In this document: positions 3,313 to 62,969 of the stretch, one piece after another
Position numbering within the stretch: position 1 is the stretch's first letter
Layout of the letters: the number at the start of each line of letters is the position of its first letter
NCBI GenBank assembly: GCA_964645795.1
Contig: CAZYCL010000004.1
Location: 88,292 to 152,291 of the forward strand
Direction: 5' to 3'
Source: an uncultured Planctomycetales bacterium
GTDB taxonomy: Bacteria > Omnitrophota > Gorgyraeia > Gygaellales > Profunditerraquicolaceae
Length of the DNA: 64,000 bases
Notes under the pieces: model-generated
Seen by the model: only the letters and a program-made list of their open reading frames with translations
Databases searched by the model: none
Told to the model about the DNA's origin: nothing
Translations under genes and position numbers: made by a program

Positions 3313-5517
3313 ATGCATTGCGCTTCCTGCGCCGTTAATATCGAACGGGTGTTAAAAAATACTCCGGGCATTGAAACTGCGGCGGTAAACTTCGCGCTTG
3401 AGAAGGCCTATATCAAGTTTGACCCGCAGGCAATAACGCTCGCGGGCATAAAGAAAAAGATCGAGAATGCCGGGTATCTGGCGGTATTTGCGTATAGGCA
3501 CGATGCCGGCGATCCCCTTGACGCCGAAAGCCTCCTGCAGTCCAGAGAAATATCTTCATTAAAGTCAAAGTTCATCTCCTCGTTTTTGCTTTCCCTGCCC
3601 CTGGCTTTTATGGCTTTATCGGAAAGCTTCAACATCCGCCTTCCCGCCTTCTTTTCTCATAATGCCATACTGGCGCAATTCGCCCTGGCCAGCGCGGTCA
3701 TGCTTTTAGGCCACCAGTTCTTTATCCGCGGACTGGTCTCGGTGTTAAAGACAAGACTGGCGAACATGGATACCCTTATCAGCCTGGGCGTAGGCTCTGC
3801 CTATCTTTACAGCCTTATAGTCTCATTGCTTATCTGGTCCGGCTCAAGAGACAAGGGCCACCTCTATTATGACAGCGCCGCTTTTCTTATCAGTTTTATC
3901 CTCCTGGGCAAGTTTTTAGAGTCGGTGGCCCGCGGTAAAGCATCCGAGGCGATAAAAAAGCTTATTGATCTAAGGCCTAAGACCGCCCTGGTTATACGTC
4001 AGGGCAAGGAGGAAGAGATAGCGGTTAGTGATGTGGTAGCCGGGGATATCATAGTGGTCAAGCCCGGGCAAAGGATACCTGTCGACGGAGTGATCCTTGA
4101 AGGGCATTCCCGGGTGGATGAGTCGATGATCACCGGGGAGAGCATGCCGGTGGAAAAGCTCATCGGTCATGAGGTTATAGGCGCCACTATCAATAAGACC
4201 GGATCTTTTAAATTTAAGGCCGGGAAAGTAGGCAAAGATACGGTGCTTGCCCAGATCATAAAGCTGGTACAGGAGGCGCAGGGGTCAAAGGCGGCGATCC
4301 AGGAGATCGCCGATAAGGTCTCGGCGTATTTCGTGCCTTCGGTGCTGGTAATAGGGATAATTACTTTTTACGTATGGTTTTTGTCCGGCAAGGGCATTGC
4401 CTTTGCCCTGGACAACTTTATTTCGGTTTTGATCATCGCCTGCCCGTGCGCTTTGGGGCTGGCAACCCCCACTGCGGTTATCGTAGGTACGGCAGTTGCC
4501 GCGCGTAACGGCATCCTGATAAAGAATGCGCGCAGCCTGGAGCTGGCCCATAAGATACGTTCGGTGGTATTTGATAAGACCGGGACCCTGACGGAGGGCA
4601 AGCCCGTGGTCACCGACGTCATCGCGCTCCCCGGTCACGACCGCAAGGCGCTCTTGAAGTATGCAGCCATAGCCGAAAAGCGTTCGCAGCACCCTTTGGC
4701 AGAAGCGGTAGTGGCCGCGGCTAAAGAAGAAGGGCTGGATATCGAAGAGCCGGACGCATTTAATTCTCTCACCGCCAAAGGGGTGATCGCCCGTTTCAAA
4801 GGGGACATAATCCTTTTGGGTAACCGCGTGCTTTTCTCGGAAAGAAAAGTCGATATTGCGCCCATCCAGGATGAGCTGAAGAACTTGGAGTTACAGGGAA
4901 AGACTACGGTCGCGGTGTCTTTTAAAAATGAACTGCTGGGGGCGATCGCCTGCAGGGACGTGCTTAAAAAACAGGCTAAGAGGGCGGTAGATGTTCTTAA
5001 GAAATCCGCAAGGCAAGTATCTATGATCACCGGAGATAATTTCTCTACAGCCGCAGTCATAGCCAAAGAGGCCGGGATAACCGAAGTTTATGCCCAGCTT
5101 CTCCCGCAGGACAAGGTTGCCCAGATCAAGAAGCTGCAGGGTATGGGGCTGGAGGTAGCTATGGTAGGGGACGGGATCAATGATGCCCCGGCCCTGGCTG
5201 CCGCGGACATCGGTATTGCCATAGGCGCAGGTACCGATGTGGCGCTGGAGTCCGCAGACATTATCCTGATGAAAGATGACCCCATGGATGTTGCGGTGGC
5301 CCTGGACCTGTCGCGTTACTGCATGAAGAAGATAAAGCAGAATCTTTTTTGGGCCTTTGTCTATAATTTGACCGCTATTCCCCTGGCCGCAGGCTTGCTC
5401 TATCCCTTTACGGGCTTTCTTCTCAACCCCGTTATTGCCGCCGCGGCCATGGCTTTCAGTTCGGTAAGCGTAGTGACCAACTCGCTTTTTATGTATGGGT
5501 ACAGAAAAAATACTTGA
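3313..5517 (+). CDS. copA: copper-translocating P-type ATPase (CopA-like) with N-terminal HMA domain
   Basis: GMHCASC metal-binding motif, CPC transmembrane motif ([13 protein letters not shown]), DKTGTLT phosphorylation site, [10 protein letters not shown] hinge. The HMA domain continues in frame upstream of the first ATG, so a non-ATG start (ATT 3277 or CTG 3283, after SD AAAGGGAGGA) is possible. Confidence 0.85.
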
Positions 5518-11896: not shown

Positions 11897-11937
11897 TTGA
11901 CATTTATATCGGCGCCTATTATAATAGGCGCCGATAT
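11897..11937 (+). promoter_or_regulatory. perfect consensus sigma70 promoter overlapped by a perfect 32-bp palindrome (operator-like; could also act as the birA terminator hairpin)
   Basis: TTGACA at 11897-11902, a 17-nt spacer and TATAAT at 11920-11925. ATATCGGCGCCTATTATAATAGGCGCCGATAT (11906-11937) is an exact inverted repeat centred on the -10 element, followed by TTTT and then the receptor gene ATG at 11941. Confidence 0.6.
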
Positions 11938-11940
11938 TTT

Positions 11941-13779
11941 ATGCGCTACTTATTTACCATGGGCATCCTGCTGTATTTATCGGTATTTATCCTTGCCTTT
12001 GCGGCTGTGGGCCTGGGGGCAGAAGGCGGCGATCTGGGCAGGATCGTGGTCAGGTCCCGAGCCATTGACGCAGAGGATGCCATTGGTCACTGTGCAATCG
12101 CCAAAGAATCGATAACCGGCCGGCAGCTCGAACAGGCCCATATCGGCTCGCTACAGGAAGCCCTTGATTATGTAAGCGGAGTTGATCTACGCGTGCGCTC
12201 TAGCCGCGGCATACAGGCGGATCTGTCCATGCGCGGCTCTACCTACGAGCAGGTAGCCGTGCTTATAGACGGGGTAAGGGTCGGGGACCCCCAAACCGGC
12301 CATCATAATCTGGACATACCGCTCACCGTAGCCGACATCGAGCGCATAGACGTGATCAAGGAGCCCGCCTCTTCGCTTTATGGACCGGGTGCCTTTGCCG
12401 GGGCCGTCAATATCATAACTAAGAAATCCGGCAAAAGCTCTTTGAGGGCGGAGTCAGTTTTCGGGGAGCATGCCCTCCGAGAGCAGGGCATATATTGCGA
12501 TCTGAACGCCGCCGGCTCTTTCTTTAAAAGCTCGTTTGAAAATAAATCTGCCAAGGCCGCGCGCCCCGATACCGATTTCGATTATCATACCGGGACAGTA
12601 TCGTTTAGCAGGCAGGAAGGCAGTTTTGATATCGATTCCTTCTTTGGCTACCAGGAAAAGGATTTTGGCGCAGGCAGCTTTTACTCCAACCTCTTCCCCG
12701 AAGAAGAGGAGCATACCCGGACCCTCTTTACCCGGACAGCCGTTAACTACGATCTTAAGCCCGGCGTATTCAAAAACAACCTCTATTTCAGGAGGCATTG
12801 GGATAAATTTATCCTGCGCCGCAGCATGCCCACAGGGGCCAATTACCACACCACTTATGTCTACGGCCTGGACTCCCAACTGCGCCTGCCCTTTGATTAT
12901 GGAGAGCTTATCCTGGGGGCAGAAGAGCATGAGGAGCGCATAGTTTCCAATAATCTGGGCAGGCATTCGAGGTTTAACCAGGGATTGGCTATCGGCCTTA
13001 TCCCAGATCTGGGCAAGGATTGGCGGGCGGCCGTTCGTTTCAGGGATGATTATCTGCAGGGTTGGGGCTGGAATGAATCTTTTAACTGCGGCCTGGGTTA
13101 TAGGCTCATCGATGGATTATGGCTGCGGTCTTCTGCCGGGCGCGCCTGGCGTATCCCCAGCTTTACCGAGCTTTATTACAATGATGCCGCCAACAAAGGC
13201 AACCCCAGCCTCGGGGCAGAGACCAGCGACAGCTTCTCGCTGGGGTTGGAGTTTGGGCGCGGGCCCTTCAAAATGTCCCTGGACCGCTACCTTCGACGGG
13301 CAAGGGATCTTATTGACTGGACGCGGGCTGATGCTTCCGGGCCCTGGCAGGCCTCGAATATCGGCAAGGCGGATTTTCAAGGGCTGGAGCTGGGCTTGTC
13401 ATGGACCGGGGCGTTTGAAGCCGGGCTGATCAGAGTAAATAAAATCCAGTTTTTCTACAATAACCTCGATACGCAAAATAAGCAGCAGGGTTTTTCCTCC
13501 AAGTATGCCCTTGATACGCTAAAACACCAGCTGGTCCTTAAAAGCAGCGCCGGCCTTTGCGGTATTGACTTCAACCTCCATCTTTCCTACAATCAGAGGT
13601 GTTTGGGGGAGAGCTACTTTGTGGGCAGCCTTTCCGTCTCGCGCCGCTTCAAATGCAAAGCTGTTCATTTTGAGCCGTTCGTCAAGGCAGACAATTTTAC
13701 CGATACAGAATATTCCGAGATCGGGGGAGTTATCCAGCCAGGCAGATGGCTTAAGTCGGGGGTAAAGTTCGAGTGGTGA
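11941..13779 (+). CDS. TonB-dependent outer-membrane receptor (small, ~610 aa)
   Basis: Signal peptide MRYLFTMGILLYLSVFILAFAA and a plug domain (DAIGHCAIAKESITGRQLEQ...GVDLRVRSSRG, IDGVRVGDPQTGHHNLDIPL, IERIDVIKEPASSLYGPGAFAGAVNIITK). A terminal Phe/Trp beta-barrel closing motif (KFEW) is present. Confidence 0.85.
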   Translation: MRYLFTMGILLYLSVFILAFAAVGLGAEGGDLGRIVVRSRAIDAEDAIGHCAIAKESITGRQLEQAHIGSLQEALDYVSGVDLRVRSSRGIQADLSMRGSTYEQVAVLIDGVRVGDPQTGHHNLDIPLTVADIERIDVIKEPASSLYGPGAFAGAVNIITKKSGKSSLRAESVFGEHALREQGIYCDLNAAGSFFKSSFENKSAKAARPDTDFDYHTGTVSFSRQEGSFDIDSFFGYQEKDFGAGSFYSNLFPEEEEHTRTLFTRTAVNYDLKPGVFKNNLYFRRHWDKFILRRSMPTGANYHTTYVYGLDSQLRLPFDYGELILGAEEHEERIVSNNLGRHSRFNQGLAIGLIPDLGKDWRAAVRFRDDYLQGWGWNESFNCGLGYRLIDGLWLRSSAGRAWRIPSFTELYYNDAANKGNPSLGAETSDSFSLGLEFGRGPFKMSLDRYLRRARDLIDWTRADASGPWQASNIGKADFQGLELGLSWTGAFEAGLIRVNKIQFFYNNLDTQNKQQGFSSKYALDTLKHQLVLKSSAGLCGIDFNLHLSYNQRCLGESYFVGSLSVSRRFKCKAVHFEPFVKADNFTDTEYSEIGGVIQPGRWLKSGVKFEW

Positions 13780-13794
13780 AGTTGAGCGGTAAAT

Positions 13795-15687
13795 ATGGAA
13801 AAATATTTTGAACTTCCCAGGATCAATCCGCAATACGTGCGCTCTAAGGATTACTTTTTTCTTTTTGAGACCTCTCGATGCAGCCGCCAGGATTTCATGA
13901 GCTATATTTTTAGTGATCCCGTAGAGGTCATAGTGGCGAGCGCTCCCCAGGATATAGAAGAGGCATTCGCCCGGCTCCAGAGGCGCTGTGAAAGGTTTTA
14001 TCTCTGCGGCTGGATTGCCTATGAGCTGGGGTATATTTTTGAGCGCGCGTCATTTTCTCATTCAGGCGTCTCTGGAAAACCCCTGGTCTGTTTTTGCGTT
14101 TTTAAAGATGCCCTAAGCTTTGACCATAGGAATGGCGAGGTTTGCGCAAATACCAAAGGCCTGTTTTCGCGCTCGTCCCGGCGCGCCGATTTTAGTGTGC
14201 GCCGGTTAAGGTTTGACATCGGCGAAGAAGATTACCGCAGAAAGGTCTCCAGGATCAAAGATTACATAAGAAAAGGCGATGCTTACCAGGTCAACTTCAC
14301 CAGCCGCTTTAACTTTAGATTTGCCGGCCAGCCTCTGGCTTTATACGAATCCCTAAGGGCCAGCCAAAGCGTTGCCTTCGGGGCTTTTTGTAAACTCAAG
14401 GACAGCTACGTTATATCTTTATCTCCGGAGTTGTTCTTCAGGATCGAAGGCAACCGCATCTATTCCAGGCCGATGAAAGGGACTATCTCGCGCGGCCCTA
14501 GCTGCGAGCTAGACGCTATCCAGGCAAAAAAACTTTTCTCCAGCGCCAAAGACCGCGCGGAAAATCTGATGATCACGGACCTGGTGCGTAACGACCTGGG
14601 CAGGATCTGCCGCACCGGCAGCGTAAAGACGGAGAATCTTTTTGATATCGAAAAGTACAACACGGTTTTTCAAATGACCTCGACCGTCAAAGGCAAGCTC
14701 AAGAGCAGCGTTTCCTATTACGACATATTCAAAAACATCTTTCCCGGCGGTTCGGTGACCGGCGCGCCGAAAATACGCTCGATGCAGATCATCAGGGAGC
14801 TGGAGAGAGGCAGGAGAGGCATTTACTGCGGGGCGCTGGGGATGATCTTTCCCGGCAAGAAGGCGGTGTTCAATCTTCCTATCCGCACGCTGGTATTATC
14901 AAAAGGCAGGGGGCATATGGGGGCAGGAAGCGGTGTGGTCATTGATTCCCGGGCAGAGGATGAGTTTCGCGAGTGCCTGCTTAAAGGCAGGTTCCTTAGC
15001 CACAGGTGCAAGGAGTTCGATCTTATTGAAACCATGCTTTGGGACAGAGAATACCGGCTTCTTGCCCTGCATCTAAGACGGCTTGCTTCTTCCGCGGCCT
15101 ACTTCGGATTTAACTTTGACCGCGGATACATTTTGTCGCGCCTGCGCAATGCCGAAGCAGGATTTAGCCGGGCACGCAAACATAGGGTCAGGCTTATTCT
15201 CGACAGGTCCGGCAGGGTTGAAATCACGGCCTCTGCCATAGGCGTCCAGGATCCTGCGCCGGCAAAGAAGGCAGCCGTATCCAGGCACAGGACAGATCCG
15301 CAGGATCCATTCCTTTACCATAAAACAACCAACCGTTTGTTATACGAACGCGAGCACGCCGTTTATAAGAAGAAAGGATTTTACGACGCGGTATTCCTTA
15401 ATAAAAGAAATGAATTTACAGAAGGCGCCATTTCCAATATAATTGTGGAAATAGGCGGCAATCTTTATACGCCGCCAGTTAGTTGCGGTTGCCTTCCCGG
15501 AGTATTCCGGCAGCATCTGCTGAGCCAGGGAAAACTGAAAGAAAGAATCATTAAACCTCAGGACCTCAATAAGGCAGACAGGGTGTTTTTGGCTAATTCC
15601 GTCAGAGGCCTGGTCGAGGTTAAAATCGATGTTCATCCATACCGTCCTCTTCGAGATAAAACCAAAAGAAGTCGCCGCTTACCGTAA
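13795..15687 (+). CDS. pabBC: fused aminodeoxychorismate synthase component I (PabB) / aminodeoxychorismate lyase (PabC, class-IV aminotransferase)
   Basis: N-terminal chorismate-binding domain (GDAYQVNFTSRF, NLMITDLVRNDLGRIC, GAPKIRSMQIIRELERGRRGIYCGALG). C-terminal class-IV aminotransferase fold (FDLIETMLWD...GFYDAVFLNKRNEFTEGAISNI). Confidence 0.85.
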   Translation: MEKYFELPRINPQYVRSKDYFFLFETSRCSRQDFMSYIFSDPVEVIVASAPQDIEEAFARLQRRCERFYLCGWIAYELGYIFERASFSHSGVSGKPLVCFCVFKDALSFDHRNGEVCANTKGLFSRSSRRADFSVRRLRFDIGEEDYRRKVSRIKDYIRKGDAYQVNFTSRFNFRFAGQPLALYESLRASQSVAFGAFCKLKDSYVISLSPELFFRIEGNRIYSRPMKGTISRGPSCELDAIQAKKLFSSAKDRAENLMITDLVRNDLGRICRTGSVKTENLFDIEKYNTVFQMTSTVKGKLKSSVSYYDIFKNIFPGGSVTGAPKIRSMQIIRELERGRRGIYCGALGMIFPGKKAVFNLPIRTLVLSKGRGHMGAGSGVVIDSRAEDEFRECLLKGRFLSHRCKEFDLIETMLWDREYRLLALHLRRLASSAAYFGFNFDRGYILSRLRNAEAGFSRARKHRVRLILDRSGRVEITASAIGVQDPAPAKKAAVSRHRTDPQDPFLYHKTTNRLLYEREHAVYKKKGFYDAVFLNKRNEFTEGAISNIIVEIGGNLYTPPVSCGCLPGVFRQHLLSQGKLKERIIKPQDLNKADRVFLANSVRGLVEVKIDVHPYRPLRDKTKRSRRLP

Positions 15688-15934
15688 AGACAGCCTGATG
15701 TGGGCGCGCTACGCCAAAAAAGCCAAAGGGTTTGTAGCGTATTTTACCATGAAGCGCTTCGGCCATAAGGGCCAGTATGCCTCAGTCTATGAGTGGCGCT
15801 CCAAGGCCGACCACGACCGCTTCATGAGCAAATTCCACGATTGGCTCGTCGCAAAATCCAGGGCCAAGGTGAAAGTCCTAGGCTACTATAATCTCAAGAA
15901 CATCGACCGCCTGCGCAACGGTTTCATCCAATAA
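15629..15934 (+). CDS. ABM (antibiotic-biosynthesis-monooxygenase / Dabb-like) domain protein
   Basis: 101 aa with a ferredoxin-like ABM pattern (MFIHTVLFEIKPKEV...YASVYEWRSKADHDRFMSK). Overlaps the pabBC 3' end by 59 nt. Confidence 0.5.
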   Translation: MFIHTVLFEIKPKEVAAYRKDSLMWARYAKKAKGFVAYFTMKRFGHKGQYASVYEWRSKADHDRFMSKFHDWLVAKSRAKVKVLGYYNLKNIDRLRNGFIQ

Positions 15935-15943
15935 CGAATAGCA

Positions 15944-16058
15944 GGGACGGTTCCCAAGCCAATTTAGAACTGTCCCCTGAGTTAGGCACCCAAGCCTATC
16001 GGATGGCTTGGTGCCCGCTCGTGCGGGACAGTTTTAGATTGTCCCAAGAACCGTCCCT
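15944..16058. repeat. ~115-nt multi-tier imperfect palindromic element (intergenic structured RNA/DNA element)
   Basis: Outer perfect 11-bp arms AGGGACGGTTC (15944-15954) and GAACCGTCCCT (16048-16058). Middle arms AATTTAGAACTGTCCC and GGGACAGTTTTAGATT pair at 14 of 16. Inner arms GGCACCCAAGCC and GGCTTGGTGCC close an 8-nt loop. Confidence 0.5.
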
Positions 16059-16067
16059 AATTTACAT

Positions 16068-17132
16068 ATGAGAAAACGTGTAGTTGTAGCGATGAGTGGA
16101 GGGGTGGACTCTTCGGTAGCCGCGGCGCTTCTTCAAAAAGAAGGCCATGAAGTCATCGGGATGACCATGTGCTTTGGCGTCGCCTCATCCGATGAAAAAC
16201 CCGGCTGTTGCGGCATGCAGGCAATAGAAGACGCCCGGCGCATCTGTCACAGGCTTGGCATCAGGCATTATGTAGTGGACCTGCAGAAGGTTTTTAAAGA
16301 AAAGGTGATAGGCCAGTTCTTGCAGGAGTATGCCGCCGGACGCACGCCCAACCCTTGCATAAGGTGCAACCAATTCGTCAAGTTCGATGCGCTCATGAAG
16401 AAGGCCCTGGCCCTGGATGCGGATTATCTGGCCACCGGCCATTACGCTCGGATCACAAAGCAGGCCGGTATCTTCCGGCTTAAAAAGGGTGTCGACAAGT
16501 TTAAGGACCAGTCGTATTTTCTTTACCGGTTTACCCAAAAACAACTGCGGCATACGCTTTTTCCGGTAGGCATTTACACCAAGGCTGAAGTCAGGAGCCT
16601 GGCAAGGGAGTTTGAGCTGCCGGTAGCAGATAAAAGGGAGAGCCAGGAGATATGTTTTTTAGGGGATGAGGGTTTAAAAGATTTTTTGCGCCGCCGGTTA
16701 ACGGCCGGGGTTTCGGCCGGTCATATCAAGGATAAATACGGCAGGCATCTGGGCAGGCACCAAGGCATAGCTTTTTATACCGTGGGCCAGCGCGAGGGCC
16801 TGGGCATTGCCGCAGGCTATCCGGTTTATATCAGCTCTATCAATGCCGCATCCAACCTGATAACCATAGGTCCCCGCAAAGACTGCCATGCCAGGGAGTT
16901 TCTGGTGAGGCAAGCCAATTTTATAACGGGCAGGCCAAAAAAGAAGGTTGTCCTCAAAGTCAAGATACGTTATAATCACAAGGAGTCGGCGGCAGAAGTC
17001 TTTGCCGTTGATAGCTGCGTCAAGGTCATATTCGGGAAACCTCAATTCGCCATAACTGCGGGGCAATCCGCGGTATTTTATGACCGGGATACAGTGGTCG
17101 GGGGAGGGATAATTAACAGGGTGATCAAATGA
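16068..17132 (+). CDS. mnmA: tRNA-specific 2-thiouridylase MnmA
   Basis: PP-loop AMSGGVDSSVAA, catalytic Cys region (NPCIRCNQFVKF), 354 aa. Confidence 0.9.
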   Translation: MRKRVVVAMSGGVDSSVAAALLQKEGHEVIGMTMCFGVASSDEKPGCCGMQAIEDARRICHRLGIRHYVVDLQKVFKEKVIGQFLQEYAAGRTPNPCIRCNQFVKFDALMKKALALDADYLATGHYARITKQAGIFRLKKGVDKFKDQSYFLYRFTQKQLRHTLFPVGIYTKAEVRSLAREFELPVADKRESQEICFLGDEGLKDFLRRRLTAGVSAGHIKDKYGRHLGRHQGIAFYTVGQREGLGIAAGYPVYISSINAASNLITIGPRKDCHAREFLVRQANFITGRPKKKVVLKVKIRYNHKESAAEVFAVDSCVKVIFGKPQFAITAGQSAVFYDRDTVVGGGIINRVIK

Positions 17133-18049
17133 CAAAGACCAAAAGCGATGAGCTGGAAAAAAAGATAGCGGAGCTTAAGAAGAAGCGCGACGCGGTTATC
17201 CTGGCGCATAATTACCAGCTGCCAGAAGTCCAGGATATCGCGGATTACCGCGGGGATTCCCTGGAGCTGTCCCGTATCGCCGCCCGAACGGAGGCCAAGG
17301 TCATTGTATTTTGCGGGGTGCACTTCATGGCCGAGACCGCATCCATCCTCTGTCCGGATAAAAAAGTTATTATGCCGGATAAGCTCTCCGGCTGCCCCAT
17401 GGCAAATATGATCACCGCGCTAGATCTGCGCAGGCTCAAAAAAGAACACCCCGAAGCCGTGGCCGTCGGCTACGTAAATACCTCCGCAGAAGTAAAAGCG
17501 GAGCTTGATTACTGCTGCACTTCTACCAACGCAGTAGCAGTGGTCAACGCCCTTAAAGACAAGAAAGAGATAATCTTCGTGCCGGACAAGTACCTGGCGG
17601 ATTTTACGGCTAAAAAGACCGGCCGCAAGCTGATCGTCTGGGACGGATTCTGCCCGACGCACATAAAGATACTTCCCGAAGACATCAAGCATGAGAAAAA
17701 GTTCCATCCTTTCGCCAAAGTAATGGTGCACCCGGAGTGCATCCCCGCGGTGCTCGACTTGGCGGATGCGGTGCTATCCACCAGCCAAATGGCCAAGTTC
17801 ACCAAGGACAGCGACGCGCACGAGTTTATCGTAGGGACCGAAGTGGGGATTATCTATCGCCTGAAACAGGACAATCCCAGGAAAGAGTTTTATCCGGCCT
17901 CCGAAAGGGCGGTCTGCCCCAATATGAAGCGAACCACGCAGGAGAAGGTGCTCTGGGCACTTGAGGAGCTCAAAGACGAAGTAAGGGTCTCTGATGATAT
18001 ACGCCAGCGTGCCCGCAAGGCCATTGACCGGATGATGGAGATCGTCTAA
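17129..18049 (+). CDS. nadA: quinolinate synthase NadA
   Basis: 306 aa with ILAHNYQ, VFCGVHFMAETA and PECIPAV motifs typical of NadA. ATGA overlap with mnmA. Confidence 0.9.
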   Translation: MTKTKSDELEKKIAELKKKRDAVILAHNYQLPEVQDIADYRGDSLELSRIAARTEAKVIVFCGVHFMAETASILCPDKKVIMPDKLSGCPMANMITALDLRRLKKEHPEAVAVGYVNTSAEVKAELDYCCTSTNAVAVVNALKDKKEIIFVPDKYLADFTAKKTGRKLIVWDGFCPTHIKILPEDIKHEKKFHPFAKVMVHPECIPAVLDLADAVLSTSQMAKFTKDSDAHEFIVGTEVGIIYRLKQDNPRKEFYPASERAVCPNMKRTTQEKVLWALEELKDEVRVSDDIRQRARKAIDRMMEIV

Positions 18050-18051
18050 GG

Positions 18052-18684
18052 GTGAACATCCCGATTGTCTTTGAAGATGATTGGATCATGGTCCTGGATA
18101 AACCCGCCGGGCTGCTGGTCATACCCACCCCACGCAAAGAAGCCCGCACCCTTACCAGCATATTAAACGATCATGCCGCATCACAAAATAAGAGCTACCG
18201 TCTTCATCCCTGCCATCGCCTTGACCGCGAGACTTCCGGTTTGATCATCTATGCCAAGGGCAAGGGGGCGCAGCAGAAAGTAATGGAGGAGTTCAAAAAC
18301 AGGCGCGTGGAAAAAAAATATATTGCCCTGGTGCAGGGGAGGCTTTCTCCAAGACAGGGGCAGATAAGCTCGCCTATCGAAGGAAAGAACGCCCTGACCG
18401 CCTACTCAACCGTTAAGGAGAAGGAGAAGTTGAGCGTAGTGGAGTTGTATGCCGTTACAGGCCGCACCAACCAGCTGCGCATACACCTGCAGAGGGCCGG
18501 CCATCCACTCGTCGGCGAGGCCAAGTTTGCCCGCCGCAGAGAATCTTCCGTGAAAGCAAAAAGGGCCTGCTTGCACGCAAAGTCCCTGTCGTTAGTCCAC
18601 CCTTTTACCGGCAAGAAGATCTTTCTTGATAGCGAGCTGCCCGCAGACATGAAGGCGCTATTGGGCGAGGAGGGCATAAGATGA
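18052..18684 (+). CDS. RluA-family pseudouridine synthase
   Basis: Catalytic HRLDRETSGLIIYAK motif, 210 aa, GTG start. Confidence 0.85.
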   Translation: MNIPIVFEDDWIMVLDKPAGLLVIPTPRKEARTLTSILNDHAASQNKSYRLHPCHRLDRETSGLIIYAKGKGAQQKVMEEFKNRRVEKKYIALVQGRLSPRQGQISSPIEGKNALTAYSTVKEKEKLSVVELYAVTGRTNQLRIHLQRAGHPLVGEAKFARRRESSVKAKRACLHAKSLSLVHPFTGKKIFLDSELPADMKALLGEEGIR

Positions 18685-20507
18685 GGCCAACTCCCAGGCA
18701 ATGGCTCGTGTCTGTGCTGCTTGCCTTTTCCGCGGCCCTGCTCTGGCTTAAGCTTGAATACCCGGCTTACATATTCATGGATTTTTCCGTTGGCAGGGAA
18801 AAGGCATTAGCGCTTTCCCGGGATTATCTAAGGTCTTTGGGGGTCAAAGACCGGGATTACTCCAGCGCCGTTGTCTTCGGCGCGGATGACTGGGCAGACA
18901 GGTATCTGCAAAGGTCGGTCGGCCTTGATGCGCAGGAAAAGTTTTTGCGCAGCCACGGCTTTGAAATATTCTACTGGCAGGTCAGGTTCTTCCGGCCGCA
19001 GGAAAAAGAGGAGTATCAGCTTTACATAAGCCCCGCTACAGGCAAGGTCAACAGGTTCAGGCATTTTATCGAAGATACCGAGCGCCGAGTGGATTTAAAA
19101 AAAGACCAGGCGCGGGCCCTGGCCTGGGATTTCCTTCGCCGCAGCTTCGGGTTAGACCCCGGGGATTACGATTTCCATCAGGAGAATGTCCAGCGCCACG
19201 ACAACAGGACCGACTACAGGTTTTCATGGGAGAAAAAAGGCGTCTACGTGCCTTGGGGCAAAGACAAAGGGGGAGCCAAGCTCTTGGCAGAGGCCACCGT
19301 CTCGGGCAGGGAGATCCGGGAGTTTCGCAAGGGCAGCCTCGAGATCCCCGAGAAGTTCCACCGCTACATCAACGACCAGTTGATGCTGGGGGAAGTCCTT
19401 TACGGGCTGGGGTTCGTGGTGATAGTAGCGATGCTGGGCTGGGCCGTGCTTATTTTGGTTGGCCGCAAGGACGAGCTGGCCATACGCTCAAGCTCTAGAT
19501 GCTATTACCTGTTTGGGGCGGCTTTTGTCATCATTTATCTGGCTGCGCAGGCAAATAACTTCCAGTCCGCGGTCATGTTCTACCCCACAAGCGTAAAACC
19601 CTCCTCTTACCTGGCTTACTATTTACTCAATGTATTTATGAACGCCGCTTTCATGGCCGCTTCCTTTATAATATTTGCCGGGGTAGGAGAGTTTATTCTT
19701 AGTCTCAGGCCTTCGGCAGACCGTTACGCGAGCATGCTCCATTTTATAAGGTCCAGCTTCCTAAACCGCAGCCTCGCTAATTCCATAATGCTGGGTTACC
19801 TCTTTTTCATCATGATAGCCGGGATACAGGCAGCGGTTTACTGGGCGGGACAGGAGTTCTGCGGGGTCTGGAAGGAATGGGAACGCTTAAGCGAATTTTC
19901 CAGCGCCTACATCCCGTTTTTAAGCGTTTTTGCCCTGGGTTTTACTGCCGCGACCAGCGAAGAGCTTAGTTACCGGCTTTTCGGCATAAACTTCGCCACA
20001 AGATACCTGCGTAAACGCTGGCTGGCGGTGATATTGGTCTCGGTGATCTGGGGGCTGGAGCATTCAAATTATCCGGTTTTCCCGGTGTGGTTCAGGATAA
20101 TCGAGATATCGCTGGTCGGGATATTCCTGGGCCTGGTGTATCTGAGGTTCGGCCTGATCGCCGTTTTGGCAGCGCACTACCTTTTTGACGTGTTCCTGTC
20201 TACCGCCGCGCATCTGTTCGGGCGCAGCCACCCCTATCTTTTTATAAGCGCCCTGGCCGCCCTGCTTATCCCGCTTGTTTTGGCCGCCGCCGCTTTTATG
20301 CTCAACAGGACGGAAAAAGAAAGAGAGTGCGGCCAGATGTTAAGCCCGGCCCAGAAGTACAATCTCCGGATACTCGAGGTCTTTATCGCCGACAGGAAGG
20401 GCCGCGGCTCGGATGCAGGGCAGCTGCGCAAGGAGCTCTTAAGCAATAATTGGGATCCCCTGCTCGTAGATTTTGCCCTCAAGAAGGATGCGGAGGCCGG
20501 ACAATGA
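18681..20507 (+). CDS. CPBP-family (CAAX-protease-like) intramembrane metalloprotease with large N-terminal extracytoplasmic domain
   Basis: TM-rich C-terminal half carries the EELSYRLFG (EExxxR) and WGLEHS (FxxxH) CPBP motifs. The N-terminal ~250 aa is a soluble domain that follows a signal-anchor. Confidence 0.7.
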   Translation: MRPTPRQWLVSVLLAFSAALLWLKLEYPAYIFMDFSVGREKALALSRDYLRSLGVKDRDYSSAVVFGADDWADRYLQRSVGLDAQEKFLRSHGFEIFYWQVRFFRPQEKEEYQLYISPATGKVNRFRHFIEDTERRVDLKKDQARALAWDFLRRSFGLDPGDYDFHQENVQRHDNRTDYRFSWEKKGVYVPWGKDKGGAKLLAEATVSGREIREFRKGSLEIPEKFHRYINDQLMLGEVLYGLGFVVIVAMLGWAVLILVGRKDELAIRSSSRCYYLFGAAFVIIYLAAQANNFQSAVMFYPTSVKPSSYLAYYLLNVFMNAAFMAASFIIFAGVGEFILSLRPSADRYASMLHFIRSSFLNRSLANSIMLGYLFFIMIAGIQAAVYWAGQEFCGVWKEWERLSEFSSAYIPFLSVFALGFTAATSEELSYRLFGINFATRYLRKRWLAVILVSVIWGLEHSNYPVFPVWFRIIEISLVGIFLGLVYLRFGLIAVLAAHYLFDVFLSTAAHLFGRSHPYLFISALAALLIPLVLAAAAFMLNRTEKERECGQMLSPAQKYNLRILEVFIADRKGRGSDAGQLRKELLSNNWDPLLVDFALKKDAEAGQ

Positions 20508-58402: not shown

Positions 58403-58448
58403 CGGCTTTACTTGAAAATATATAAATAATATAGTATAATTGTCTTAG

Positions 58449-58632
58449 CCGATAAAGGTAAACCTCTGCTTTAACAAGCAGACACGCCGCAAGCCCTGCG
58501 GCGCGCATTGAAAAATGGGGGCACAAAGCTACAGACCTAAGCCCGCCAGCTCCAGGGCGGGTATGGTGGCTGGGTTGCCGAGATAAAAGGAAGGGCAGAA
58601 GCTTATTCTGCTTGCCTTTATCGGCTTTTTAT
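58449..58632 (+). ncRNA. candidate ~185-nt structured small RNA (6S-RNA-like closed architecture; identity unconfirmed)
   Basis: ORF-free 360-bp gap. A 5' AGCCGATAAAGG pairs perfectly with a 3' CCTTTATCGGCT that is followed by TTTTT. Internal hairpins TCTGCTT-taac-AAGCAGA, CCCGCC-agctccag-GGCGGG and GCAGAA-gctta-TTCTGC. Confidence 0.35.
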
Positions 58633-62484: not shown

Positions 62485-62779
62485 AAAAGATATCAAGTCG
62501 CTTATCGCGGACTGTCATGCGATAGCCAGGGATAAAGGGTGGTGGGAGGCGGATCGTAACGACGGAGAGCTCATCGCCCTTATGCACTCCGAGCTTTCCG
62601 AGGCCCTCGAGGCGATGCGCAATCACGCAAACCTTGAGCTTATAGCCGAAGAGCTGGCCGATTGCTGCATACGTATCTTCGATTACTGCGGGGCGCGCGG
62701 CATCGATCTTGAAGCGGCGCTGGCCAAGAAGATAGAGTACAACAAGGGCCGTCCCTACAGGCATGGCAAGAAATTTTAA
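62471..62779 (+). CDS. MazG-like nucleotide pyrophosphohydrolase domain protein
   Basis: LIALMHSELSEALEA...EELADCCIRIFD EExx(E/D) metal-binding helix pair. ~100 aa. ATG 62471 overlaps the upstream gene end. Confidence 0.65.
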   Translation: MKQNKKDIKSLIADCHAIARDKGWWEADRNDGELIALMHSELSEALEAMRNHANLELIAEELADCCIRIFDYCGARGIDLEAALAKKIEYNKGRPYRHGKKF

Positions 62780-62789
62780 GGTTTTTTGC

Positions 62790-62969
62790 CAAACGTTTGA
62801 CAAAAAGCAAATAAATTGATTATCCGGTTTAATAAATATGGTTACAGCGATTTCAAAACTGATTACGGTGATTAAAACAAATTGCGCAAGTTCAAAAGTA
62901 CTGATATTTAATCACTGAAATCATTCTTTAAATGACTGTAATCAAAACTTTCCCTGTGGATTTATCCTG
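62790..62969. promoter_or_regulatory. AT-rich intergenic regulatory island with repeated TGATTA/TAATCA motifs and a 9-bp inverted repeat
   Basis: ~30% GC against a ~55% GC background. TTGACA at 62797. GTGATTAAA...(30 nt)...TTTAATCAC is a perfect inverted repeat. At least five GATTA/TAATC hexamers. Confidence 0.4.

Follow-up and report, generated by a model that had tools for sequence, protein, structure and literature searches.

In the TIRtrons described by Di Nocera et al. (2013; PMC3733652), genes for TIRYTs, tyrosine transposases that resemble the RAYTs associated with repetitive extragenic palindromes (REPs), are flanked by inverted repeats sharing the motif GGGGWSAS, and some of these repeats make up moderately abundant families in dimers or clusters. 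Most TIRYTs fall into subclass 2.1 of the TnpA-Y1 proteins (Quentin et al. 2018; PMC6006769), which is characterized by an NHVH motif, a Y...NP motif, a C-terminal helix-turn-helix and a median length of 238 amino acids, and was present in 14.9% of strains; these authors reported finding no REP-like sequences next to its genes. Here, we analyzed a 116-nt nested palindrome in a 64-kb stretch of DNA (the window; contig CAZYCL010000004.1 of assembly GCA_964645795.1, positions 88,292 to 152,291) from a member of Candidatus Omnitrophota, where it lies between a gene with an ABM-like domain and mnmA. A 10-nt core, GGGACNGTTC (M, with M' for the inverted core), recurs four to five times in the palindrome, with the orientations + - (centre) + - -. 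The reading that we favor as the probable one is that the element is a compound, non-autonomous repeat of a wider M family, lodged in the ABM-mnmA spacer, which is similar to REPINs (inverted REP doublets) and bacterial interspersed mosaic elements (BIMEs) and belongs with the TIRtrons. Most likely, it is not a dedicated RNA switch of mnmA.

Anatomy of the element

The element occupies positions 15943-16058 and was resolved, from the sequence and with a repeat finder, as an imperfect palindrome nested in three tiers, with 34-nt arms (15943-15976 and 16025-16058) that are 79% complementary and flank a 48-nt centre. In an inverted-repeat scan, it was the longest inverted repeat of the window. 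A preliminary description had recognized the palindrome between the ABM gene and mnmA but gave it 115 nt from position 15944, one short of the 116 nt from 15943 that we measured. Its outer and inner tiers were as described there, while the middle tier, given as 16 bp with two mismatches, spans 17 positions with two non-Watson-Crick G.T oppositions (Table 1). The direct repeat CCCAAG, already noted on both arms (15953-15958 and 16043-16048), has a third occurrence at 15989-15994. When written as CCCAAG(CC), the motif is present three times directly and once inverted, and never as a pair of complementary arms (A/A') around the core.

Within these 116 nt, two copies of M are exact and two to three are degenerate, and they alternate in orientation. 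M-like sites showed no excess elsewhere in the window or in ~11 kb of additional sequence from the same strain. The minus strand of 15967-15977 reads GGGGACAGTTC, and the second copy together with the next C gives GGGGACAG, which fits the published GGGGWSAS motif. The ends of the element read AGGGACG...CGTCCCT and form a perfect terminal inverted repeat of 11 bp. There was no direct repeat in the flanks CGAATAGC and AATTTACAT (...AGCA / TAAT...), and no target-site duplication was visible.

The fold is much more stable than chance would give. As RNA, the plus strand folds with a minimum free energy of -71.9 kcal/mol (shuffles -34.4 +/- 3.5, z -10.7) and the minus strand with -69.9 kcal/mol (z -9.1). 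As DNA, the whole element reaches -34.1 and -35.2 kcal/mol (z -8.4 and -8.3), the central hairpin -11.1 kcal/mol (z -4.2), and the two arms, folded separately, -7.7 kcal/mol (M1 pairing with M2) and -4.9 kcal/mol. The G.U pairs are split between strands, with those of the middle tier on the plus strand and those that would close the outer internal loop on the minus strand. Since neither strand is favored in folding, a palindrome at the DNA level is indicated. The element is a palindrome composed of palindromes.

Table 1. Tiers, core copies and flanks of the element (window positions), and M units next to Y1 transposase genes at other loci.
Feature	Position	Strand	Sequence	Description
Outer tier	15943-15953 vs 16048-16058		AGGGACGGTTC vs GAACCGTCCCT	11 bp, perfect
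Middle tier	15960-15976 vs 16025-16041		CAATTTAGAACTGTCCC vs GGGACAGTTTTAGATTG	17 positions, two G.T oppositions
Inner tier	15985-15996 vs 16005-16015		GGCACCCAAGCC vs GGCTTGGTGCC	11-12 bp, one bulged C, 8-nt loop TATCGGAT
Central hairpin	15985-16015		GGCACC(C)AAGCC / TATCGGAT / GGCTTGGTGCC	unrelated to M; bears lineage-specific arm sequence CCCAAGCC and its complement
M1	15944-15953	+	GGGACGGTTC	exact core, left terminus; same 10-mer as repeat-family core
M2	15967-15976	-	GAACTGTCCC	GGGACAGTTC on minus strand; N is T on plus strand
M3	16025-16034	+	GGGACAGTTT	degenerate core copy, last base differs
Half core	16041-16045	-	GTCCC	followed by overlapping CCCAAG
M5	16048-16057	-	GAACCGTCCC	exact inverted core, right terminus
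Left spacer remnant	15935-15942	+	CGAATAGC	element begins 8 nt past ABM stop TAA, 15932-15934
Right spacer remnant	16059-16067	+	AATTTACAT	9 nt before mnmA ATG at 16068
Locus L155				M units just upstream of Y1 gene
Locus L156				two M hairpins just upstream of Y1 gene
Locus L123				M units on both sides of Y1 gene
P0360 (Ruminococcus sp.), upstream	62 nt before ATG		AGACAG-GGGACGGTTC-TATGTCTT
P0360, downstream	9 nt after stop		AAGACAGA-GAACCGTCCC-CTGTCTT
P0300			upstream CGAACGCA-GGGACGGTTC-CTTTCGTTCG	downstream the inverse with one mismatch; more M units dispersed nearby

The core repeat in other genomes and beside Y1 genes

Using tblastn with E. coli RayT and then with its matches, we located genes for IS200-like Y1 transposases adjoining M units at three unrelated loci (L155, L156 and L123; Table 1). 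The encoded proteins share 39-45% mutual identity. Those of L155 and L156 scored 42-47 bits against Pfam Y1_Tnp (cut-off 23) and fell below the NCBIfam REP_Tyr_transpos cut-off (65-70 vs 80 bits), and that of L123 was detected by tblastn only. In an unbiased test, homologues were picked on protein similarity alone and their flanks then inspected; M units with complementary arms were found upstream (A-M-A') and downstream (A-M'-A') of the gene for P0360, from a Ruminococcus sp. metagenome-assembled genome, and of that for P0300. Linkage of M to a Y1 gene was observed in five independent lineages (the three loci, P0360 and P0300). The Y1 proteins have GNHVH and YIxxNP motifs, a C-terminal helix-turn-helix and a length of 248-269 amino acids.

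The Ruminococcus Y1 gene and its repeats were present in two contexts, in different samples (L182, 2845-2900, vs L184, 1105-1150). At L184, the right end of the Y1 unit abuts a half unit that reads CC, then GGTTC-TCTGATTG, and the left context differs from that at L182. This half unit suggests that breaking and joining take place within the core, between GGGAC and GGTTC.

A scan of IMG/VR for the pattern M-N10-40-M' returned 16 contigs with a GC content of 0.30-0.65, 4/16 of them multicopy. Contig L094 has six intergenic copies of M in 6 kb, in nearly every gap, and L098, L102 and L103 have several each. These four contigs come from genuine tailed phages, in which PHROGs identified genes for a terminase, a major head protein and an endolysin. 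As a control, two scrambled 10-mers were searched in the viral collection and matched 7 and 2 contigs, all single-copy. On the basis of these control scans, the raw viral match count is just modestly above background, and the signal lies in the contigs with several copies and in the architecture that they share. Neither the element nor a phage unit had a BLAST match among GenBank phages, and MT836202.1, a phage relative by terminase, was set aside as it has no M. In the phage contigs L110/L111 (11114-11220), a tRNA between M and M' was considered and rejected, having been called by neither ARAGORN nor Rfam. The 87-nt segment that M/M' enclose there contains GGTTCGATTCC, which resembles a T-arm, and its ends are acceptor-like and match the outer arms.

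The three-core pattern M..M'..M was found at 47 metagenome loci (GC 0.38-0.73), where M forms hairpins, tandem hairpin units, direct arrays and inverted arrays, typically right after stop codons and between convergent genes. One of the hosts, L124, belongs to Micropruina/Propionibacteriales (LivG 89-100% identity), and the orthologous site in a Micropruina metagenome-assembled genome has two units vs five in L124. Other hosts are Firmicutes-like chromosomes, and in L130 M units follow an mcsB-clpC operon. Among other Omnitrophota, exact M/M' lies between csp and mnmA in L027, variants occupy the same place in L048 and L031, and L072 has an M hairpin at another location, followed by a T-run. 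Rfam searches of M-rich loci returned nothing relevant to the repeat.

Two side observations concern such loci. In L130 (4983-5653; also L125, L128, L142 and L151), eight GGGACNGTTC units, an AT-rich centre of ~170 nt and eight inverted units lie between convergent clpC and a glycosyltransferase gene, in an array that resembles an origin or a transposon-end array. L150, a contig with a GC content of 0.39 and ~12 M hairpins in 14 kb, in almost every intergenic gap, contains a c-di-AMP riboswitch at 4899-5037 (RF00379, 91 bits).

The typical unit of the family is A-M-A', in which a constant core stands between complementary arms of 5-9 nt; the arms agree within a genome and differ from one genome to another. 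Flanking stems of at least 5 bp were present at 48% of viral and 29% of metagenomic M sites, compared to 5% of random positions and 0/14 control sites. Across phages, whether related or not, the asymmetric linkers retain one orientation with respect to the coding strand. The commonest family core, GGGGACGG, deviates from GGGGWSAS at position 7.

An operator array would account for some of these features. In this alternative, the quasi-palindromic GRAC-N-GTYC sites would be bound, like phage 'stoperators', by a dimeric protein acting as a repressor of the mnmA promoter region. The core comes close to a palindrome and has a free central base, four to five sites cover the promoter position of mnmA, and the sites of the L094 phage lie between nearly all genes in a fixed orientation to transcription. 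However, all-vs-all clustering of the genes next to M arrays gave no shared family, and these neighbors include no shared candidate regulator gene; the same clustering missed Y1 because too few of the loci have a Y1 gene. Sites also follow the stops of unrelated genes (ABC transporters, clpC, a WD40 gene), and the demonstrated partner of M is the Y1 transposase gene. We consider an operator array exceedingly unlikely.

Returning to M as a transposase-linked repeat, we tentatively propose that hairpins bearing GGGACNGTTC could be the missing cognate DNA substrate of the second-largest IS200-like Y1/HUH clade (subclass 2.1, TIRYT). The constant core would be the recognition and cleavage site, the arms would co-vary per lineage, and the repeats would have spread through Firmicutes, Actinomycetota, Omnitrophota and the intergenic DNA of tailed phages, with the window element as a footprint still shaping operon structure. 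Such repeats populate phage genomes and candidate phyla, and a 10-nt core in a hairpin is a candidate, testable DNA partner for a large and biochemically uncharacterized clade of HUH/Y1 'domesticated transposases'. This candidate cognate site is a more interesting lead than the locus itself.

Origin of the element at the mnmA locus

The gap between the ABM-like gene and mnmA is 133 nt and is filled by the element. The upstream gene encodes 101 amino acids with a weak Pfam ABM match (17.8 bits vs a cut-off of 23.1), and mnmA (16068-17132) encodes Pfam tRNA_Me_trans domains; nadA and a gene for a pseudouridine synthase come after it. Two further observations were made on these genes: the ABM-like gene and the 3' end of a pabB/pabC fusion gene have 59 nt in common (15629-15687), and in one public annotation (P0001, 342 aa) the start of mnmA is placed 12 codons further on, so that part of the SGGxDS P-loop would be lost.

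An ABM-like gene lies directly upstream of mnmA in five other Omnitrophota (L018, L064, L010, L026 and L161), and their spacers of 13-70 nt (13-14 nt in L018 and L064) hold no such palindrome. The element was also not found upstream of mnmA in the nearest relatives (63-64% identity), nor was a conserved element in the mnmA upstream regions of 80 genome loci and five further contigs. Due to this absence from orthologous spacers, the element appears to have been inserted into a spacer of only ~18 nt, splitting a gene pair that is tight elsewhere. No close relatives were found in the databases, where mnmA identity falls from 100% to 64%, making a close-range covariation analysis impossible. In many Omnitrophota (L010-L089; 20 nt upstream inspected), the ATG of mnmA is preceded at a distance of only 6-9 nt by an extended -10 box, TGnTATAAT, so that the mnmA mRNAs may be leaderless. 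The window mnmA has no space for this box, and the element occupies that promoter position.

Its place directly before mnmA, instead of the usual -10 box, is what a cis-regulatory RNA for mnmA-nadA (an attenuator, thermometer or processing site) would call for. The preliminary description had suggested a structured RNA of this kind; the RNA hairpin is very stable, and L012 also has a nested palindrome of ~105 nt directly upstream of mnmA. However, the likeness between the two did not reach significance once multiple testing was taken into account (local score 23 vs 15.3 +/- 2.0 for shuffles, tied with L027 among 76 loci). The element had no Rfam match at the gathering threshold in a scan of the whole window, or at E <= 10 in 15700-16300, and it is absent from the 63-64% identical relatives and from most of the 80 loci. 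Both strands fold equally, with G.U pairs on both, and the element has neither an alternative terminator/antiterminator pair nor a U-tract. We regard a regulatory RNA as very unlikely here, and the suggestion was not supported. The L012 palindrome (2874-2976), from another Omnitrophota metagenome-assembled genome (mnmA 62% identical), is in itself AT-rich, lies upstream of a -10 box, contains AAAC(N)GTTT units and GAGATTG repeats, and has an RNA z of -4.3; what it has in common with the window is ACAGTTTTA(A)GATTG.

For this strain, the Logan contigs of at least seven runs are all interrupted within the element (L001-L009), with ends at 15991 (one at 16003) and starts at 15974. These contigs were presumably assembled at k = 31, and in that case the breakpoints imply that only k-mers within 15962-16003 share another sequence context. 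The borders of this segment are A15961 and T16004, which form the innermost pair in an 8-bp inverted repeat, CCAAGCCA (15954-15961) and TGGCTTGG (16004-16011). The breaks could be due to population heterogeneity or to a hairpin artefact. Both the recurrence of the breaks across runs and the bounding repeat would agree with a recombination or inversion switch, in which DNA enclosed by short inverted repeats would be inverted or vary within the population and so alter the region upstream of mnmA. Plain inversion between 8-bp repeats, however, would shift the graph branch 8 nt outward, which does not fit the breakpoints, and a hairpin-induced library or assembly artefact, of a kind that is common, is an ordinary alternative. 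There is no recombinase gene nearby, and other assemblies (L004 and the window) read through with the same sequence, leaving such a switch highly improbable. More generally, M hairpins may explain the fragmentation of short-read assemblies around such sites.

Several results weigh against our preferred reading of the element as a compound M-family repeat. The sequence searched from its own genome comprised the window and ~11 kb of same-strain extensions (L167/L169), ~75 kb in total. Neither 11-12-mers with mismatches nor a scan for long inverted repeats located a second copy in it, contrary to what a multicopy element would predict, and tblastn gave no match to a Y1 gene. In ~0.5 Mb of Omnitrophota loci, tblastn found no TIRtron. 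The longest stem flanking an M site of the window is 2 bp; A/A' arms are lacking and M pairs with M instead. The link to the family is made by one 10-mer, itself the query by which the family was searched, and as seen in the controls, G+C-rich stems of 10 bp appear by chance in a few phage contigs.

Some of these results would be in keeping with a home-grown hairpin, in which a lineage-specific terminator or insulator arose by local palindromic duplication and the 10-mer is shared by chance or by convergence on a G+C-rich stem. The element is single-copy in the sequence searched, its M sites lack the flanking arms of the family, the control 10-mers also matched 2-7 phage contigs, and similar GGGAC...GTCCC stems with T-rich tails are found at csp and at other expected terminator places (L027, L031, L048 and L072). 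A simple stem would nevertheless not be expected to contain the 10-mer twice exactly and another two to three times in near form within 116 nt, and the variable position N (G, A, T) mirrors the variation within family arrays. In addition, the element lacks a U-tract and was not called in a terminator scan of 13000-19000, whereas ordinary terminators of the same genome are canonical (e.g., L169, 14244-14293). We consider a home-grown origin unlikely.

In other genomes, M units flank Y1 genes of the TIRYT (subclass 2.1) type in the manner of TIRtrons and also spread as short hairpins, dimers and arrays after stops, including in phages. If the element is a compound M-family repeat, one copy, or a locally reduplicated pair of copies, may have entered the ~18-nt spacer inside the pabBC-ABM-mnmA gene string, either through single-strand transposition by a Y1 transposase or through recombination between M units, and would now be a relic. 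We infer the mobilization step by analogy with IS200/IS605 and RAYT, systems in which hairpins of single-stranded DNA are the substrate of a Y1/HUH enzyme.

In E. coli, REPs and BIMEs form stable 3' hairpins that protect mRNA from exonucleases and damp nearby read-through and translation. If transcribed, the -72 kcal/mol hairpin would, like those of classical REPs, block 3' exonucleases and stabilize the upstream message, and it could attenuate read-through. With only 8 nt between it and the ABM stop and 9 nt between it and the mnmA start, it may also hinder translation on either side. By this analogy, the local effect at the RNA level is probably the incidental one of a hairpin at the end of the mRNA, between pabBC-ABM and mnmA. 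In an annotation of this locus, the palindrome should appear as a repeat or a relic of a mobile element, rather than as a riboswitch or terminator.

Other structured features were recorded in the window. A c-di-GMP-I riboswitch aptamer at 58447-58582 on the plus strand (RF01051, 48.9 bits, full-length) was its only Rfam match. A BirA-like gene with helix-turn-helix and biotin ligase domains is closely followed by a perfect 32-bp palindrome (11906-11937; ATATCGGCGCCTATTA/TAATAGGCGCCGATAT) that may be a biotin operator. Upstream of a YjeF_N gene, a long, imperfect, AT-rich palindrome (62839-62944) has 38-nt arms that are 79% complementary and 30 nt apart, and a 28-nt overlapping palindrome stands beside it at 62772-62817; neither is related in sequence to the element before mnmA.

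Comparison with known repeat systems

Like an intrinsic terminator, the element is a hairpin right after a stop codon, and the M hairpins of L031, L072, L027 and L048 have T-rich tails. In contrast, its stem is ~5x the usual length, in agreement with the preliminary remark that it is far longer than a terminator, and its tail, TAATTTACAT, has no U-tract. The subterminal hairpins of IS200/IS605 are similar in that the same Y1 HUH superfamily acts on them as single-stranded DNA, without target-site duplication. However, at the ends of IS200 the hairpins are directly oriented, on one strand, and flank tnpA and often tnpB, whereas M units are inverted around the gene and also form free arrays.

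Miniature inverted-repeat transposable elements (MITEs) such as ERIC, Correia/NEMIS and RUP are comparable in length (~115 nt), terminal inverted repeats and intergenic location, in the strong RNA hairpin that is formed if they are co-transcribed, and in possible effects on adjacent genes. The element differs from them in having no DDE-type parent insertion sequence and in its reiterated short cores, which replace terminal repeats around a unique centre. GTAG-REPs, sigma-70 and extracytoplasmic function (ECF) promoters, LexA, CtsR and parS boxes, and group II intron domain V were rejected on sequence. An integron attC site (RYYYAAC...GTTRRRY) was also rejected, as the sole GTTRRRY (GTTAGGC, 15981-15987) is internal and has no partner. 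CGTC-tagged REPs have an unpaired CGTC head, a stem of 8-9 bp starting with AT, a loop of 4-5 nt and a CCA tail (Di Nocera et al. 2013; PMC3733652); in the element, the CGTC/TGTC inside M' is paired, and neither an AT-start stem nor a CCA tail is present.

The REP, REPIN and BIME repeats of E. coli and Pseudomonas, together with RAYT, resemble the M family in several respects. All are short imperfect palindromes downstream of genes. As in REPINs, an inverted doublet makes a larger hairpin of ~100 nt, the arms in the window being hairpins themselves, and as in BIMEs, clusters alternate in orientation. As in RAYT-REP systems, the repeats flank a cognate HUH/Y1 gene, with a conserved tag that stays constant and stems that vary by lineage. 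Because no GTAG or GTGG, nor their complements CTAC or CCAC, occurs in 15943-16058, the element is not a classical REP. What is conserved is a 10-nt core, which either occupies the loop or the centre of a unit or makes up its stem, and the copy number in the ~75 kb searched from its own genome is low. The preliminary likening to a REP/MITE-like unit was therefore borne out in part: elsewhere, the core is multicopy, forms dimers and clusters, follows stops and flanks Y1 genes, but in its own genome the element is single-copy in the ~75 kb and lacks a GT[AG]G tag.

The kind of element to which the palindrome probably belongs is already known and little studied. PMC3733652 and PMC6006769 do not describe the 10-nt core, the hairpin arms or the spread to phages, Omnitrophota and Actinomycetota, and a literature text search for the 10-mer returned eukaryotic primers only. 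Unlike a TIRtron, the window has no Y1 gene by tblastn, one compound copy was found in the ~75 kb, and its units lack lineage-specific arms. The likeness to TIRtrons is that GGGGACAG(TTC) of M2, as well as many copies of the family, fits GGGGWSAS, and that the Y1 proteins found here share the motifs and length of subclass 2.1. The window itself has the core motif in an inverted dimer or cluster layout that is intergenic and near a stop codon, as are the repeats of TIRtrons.

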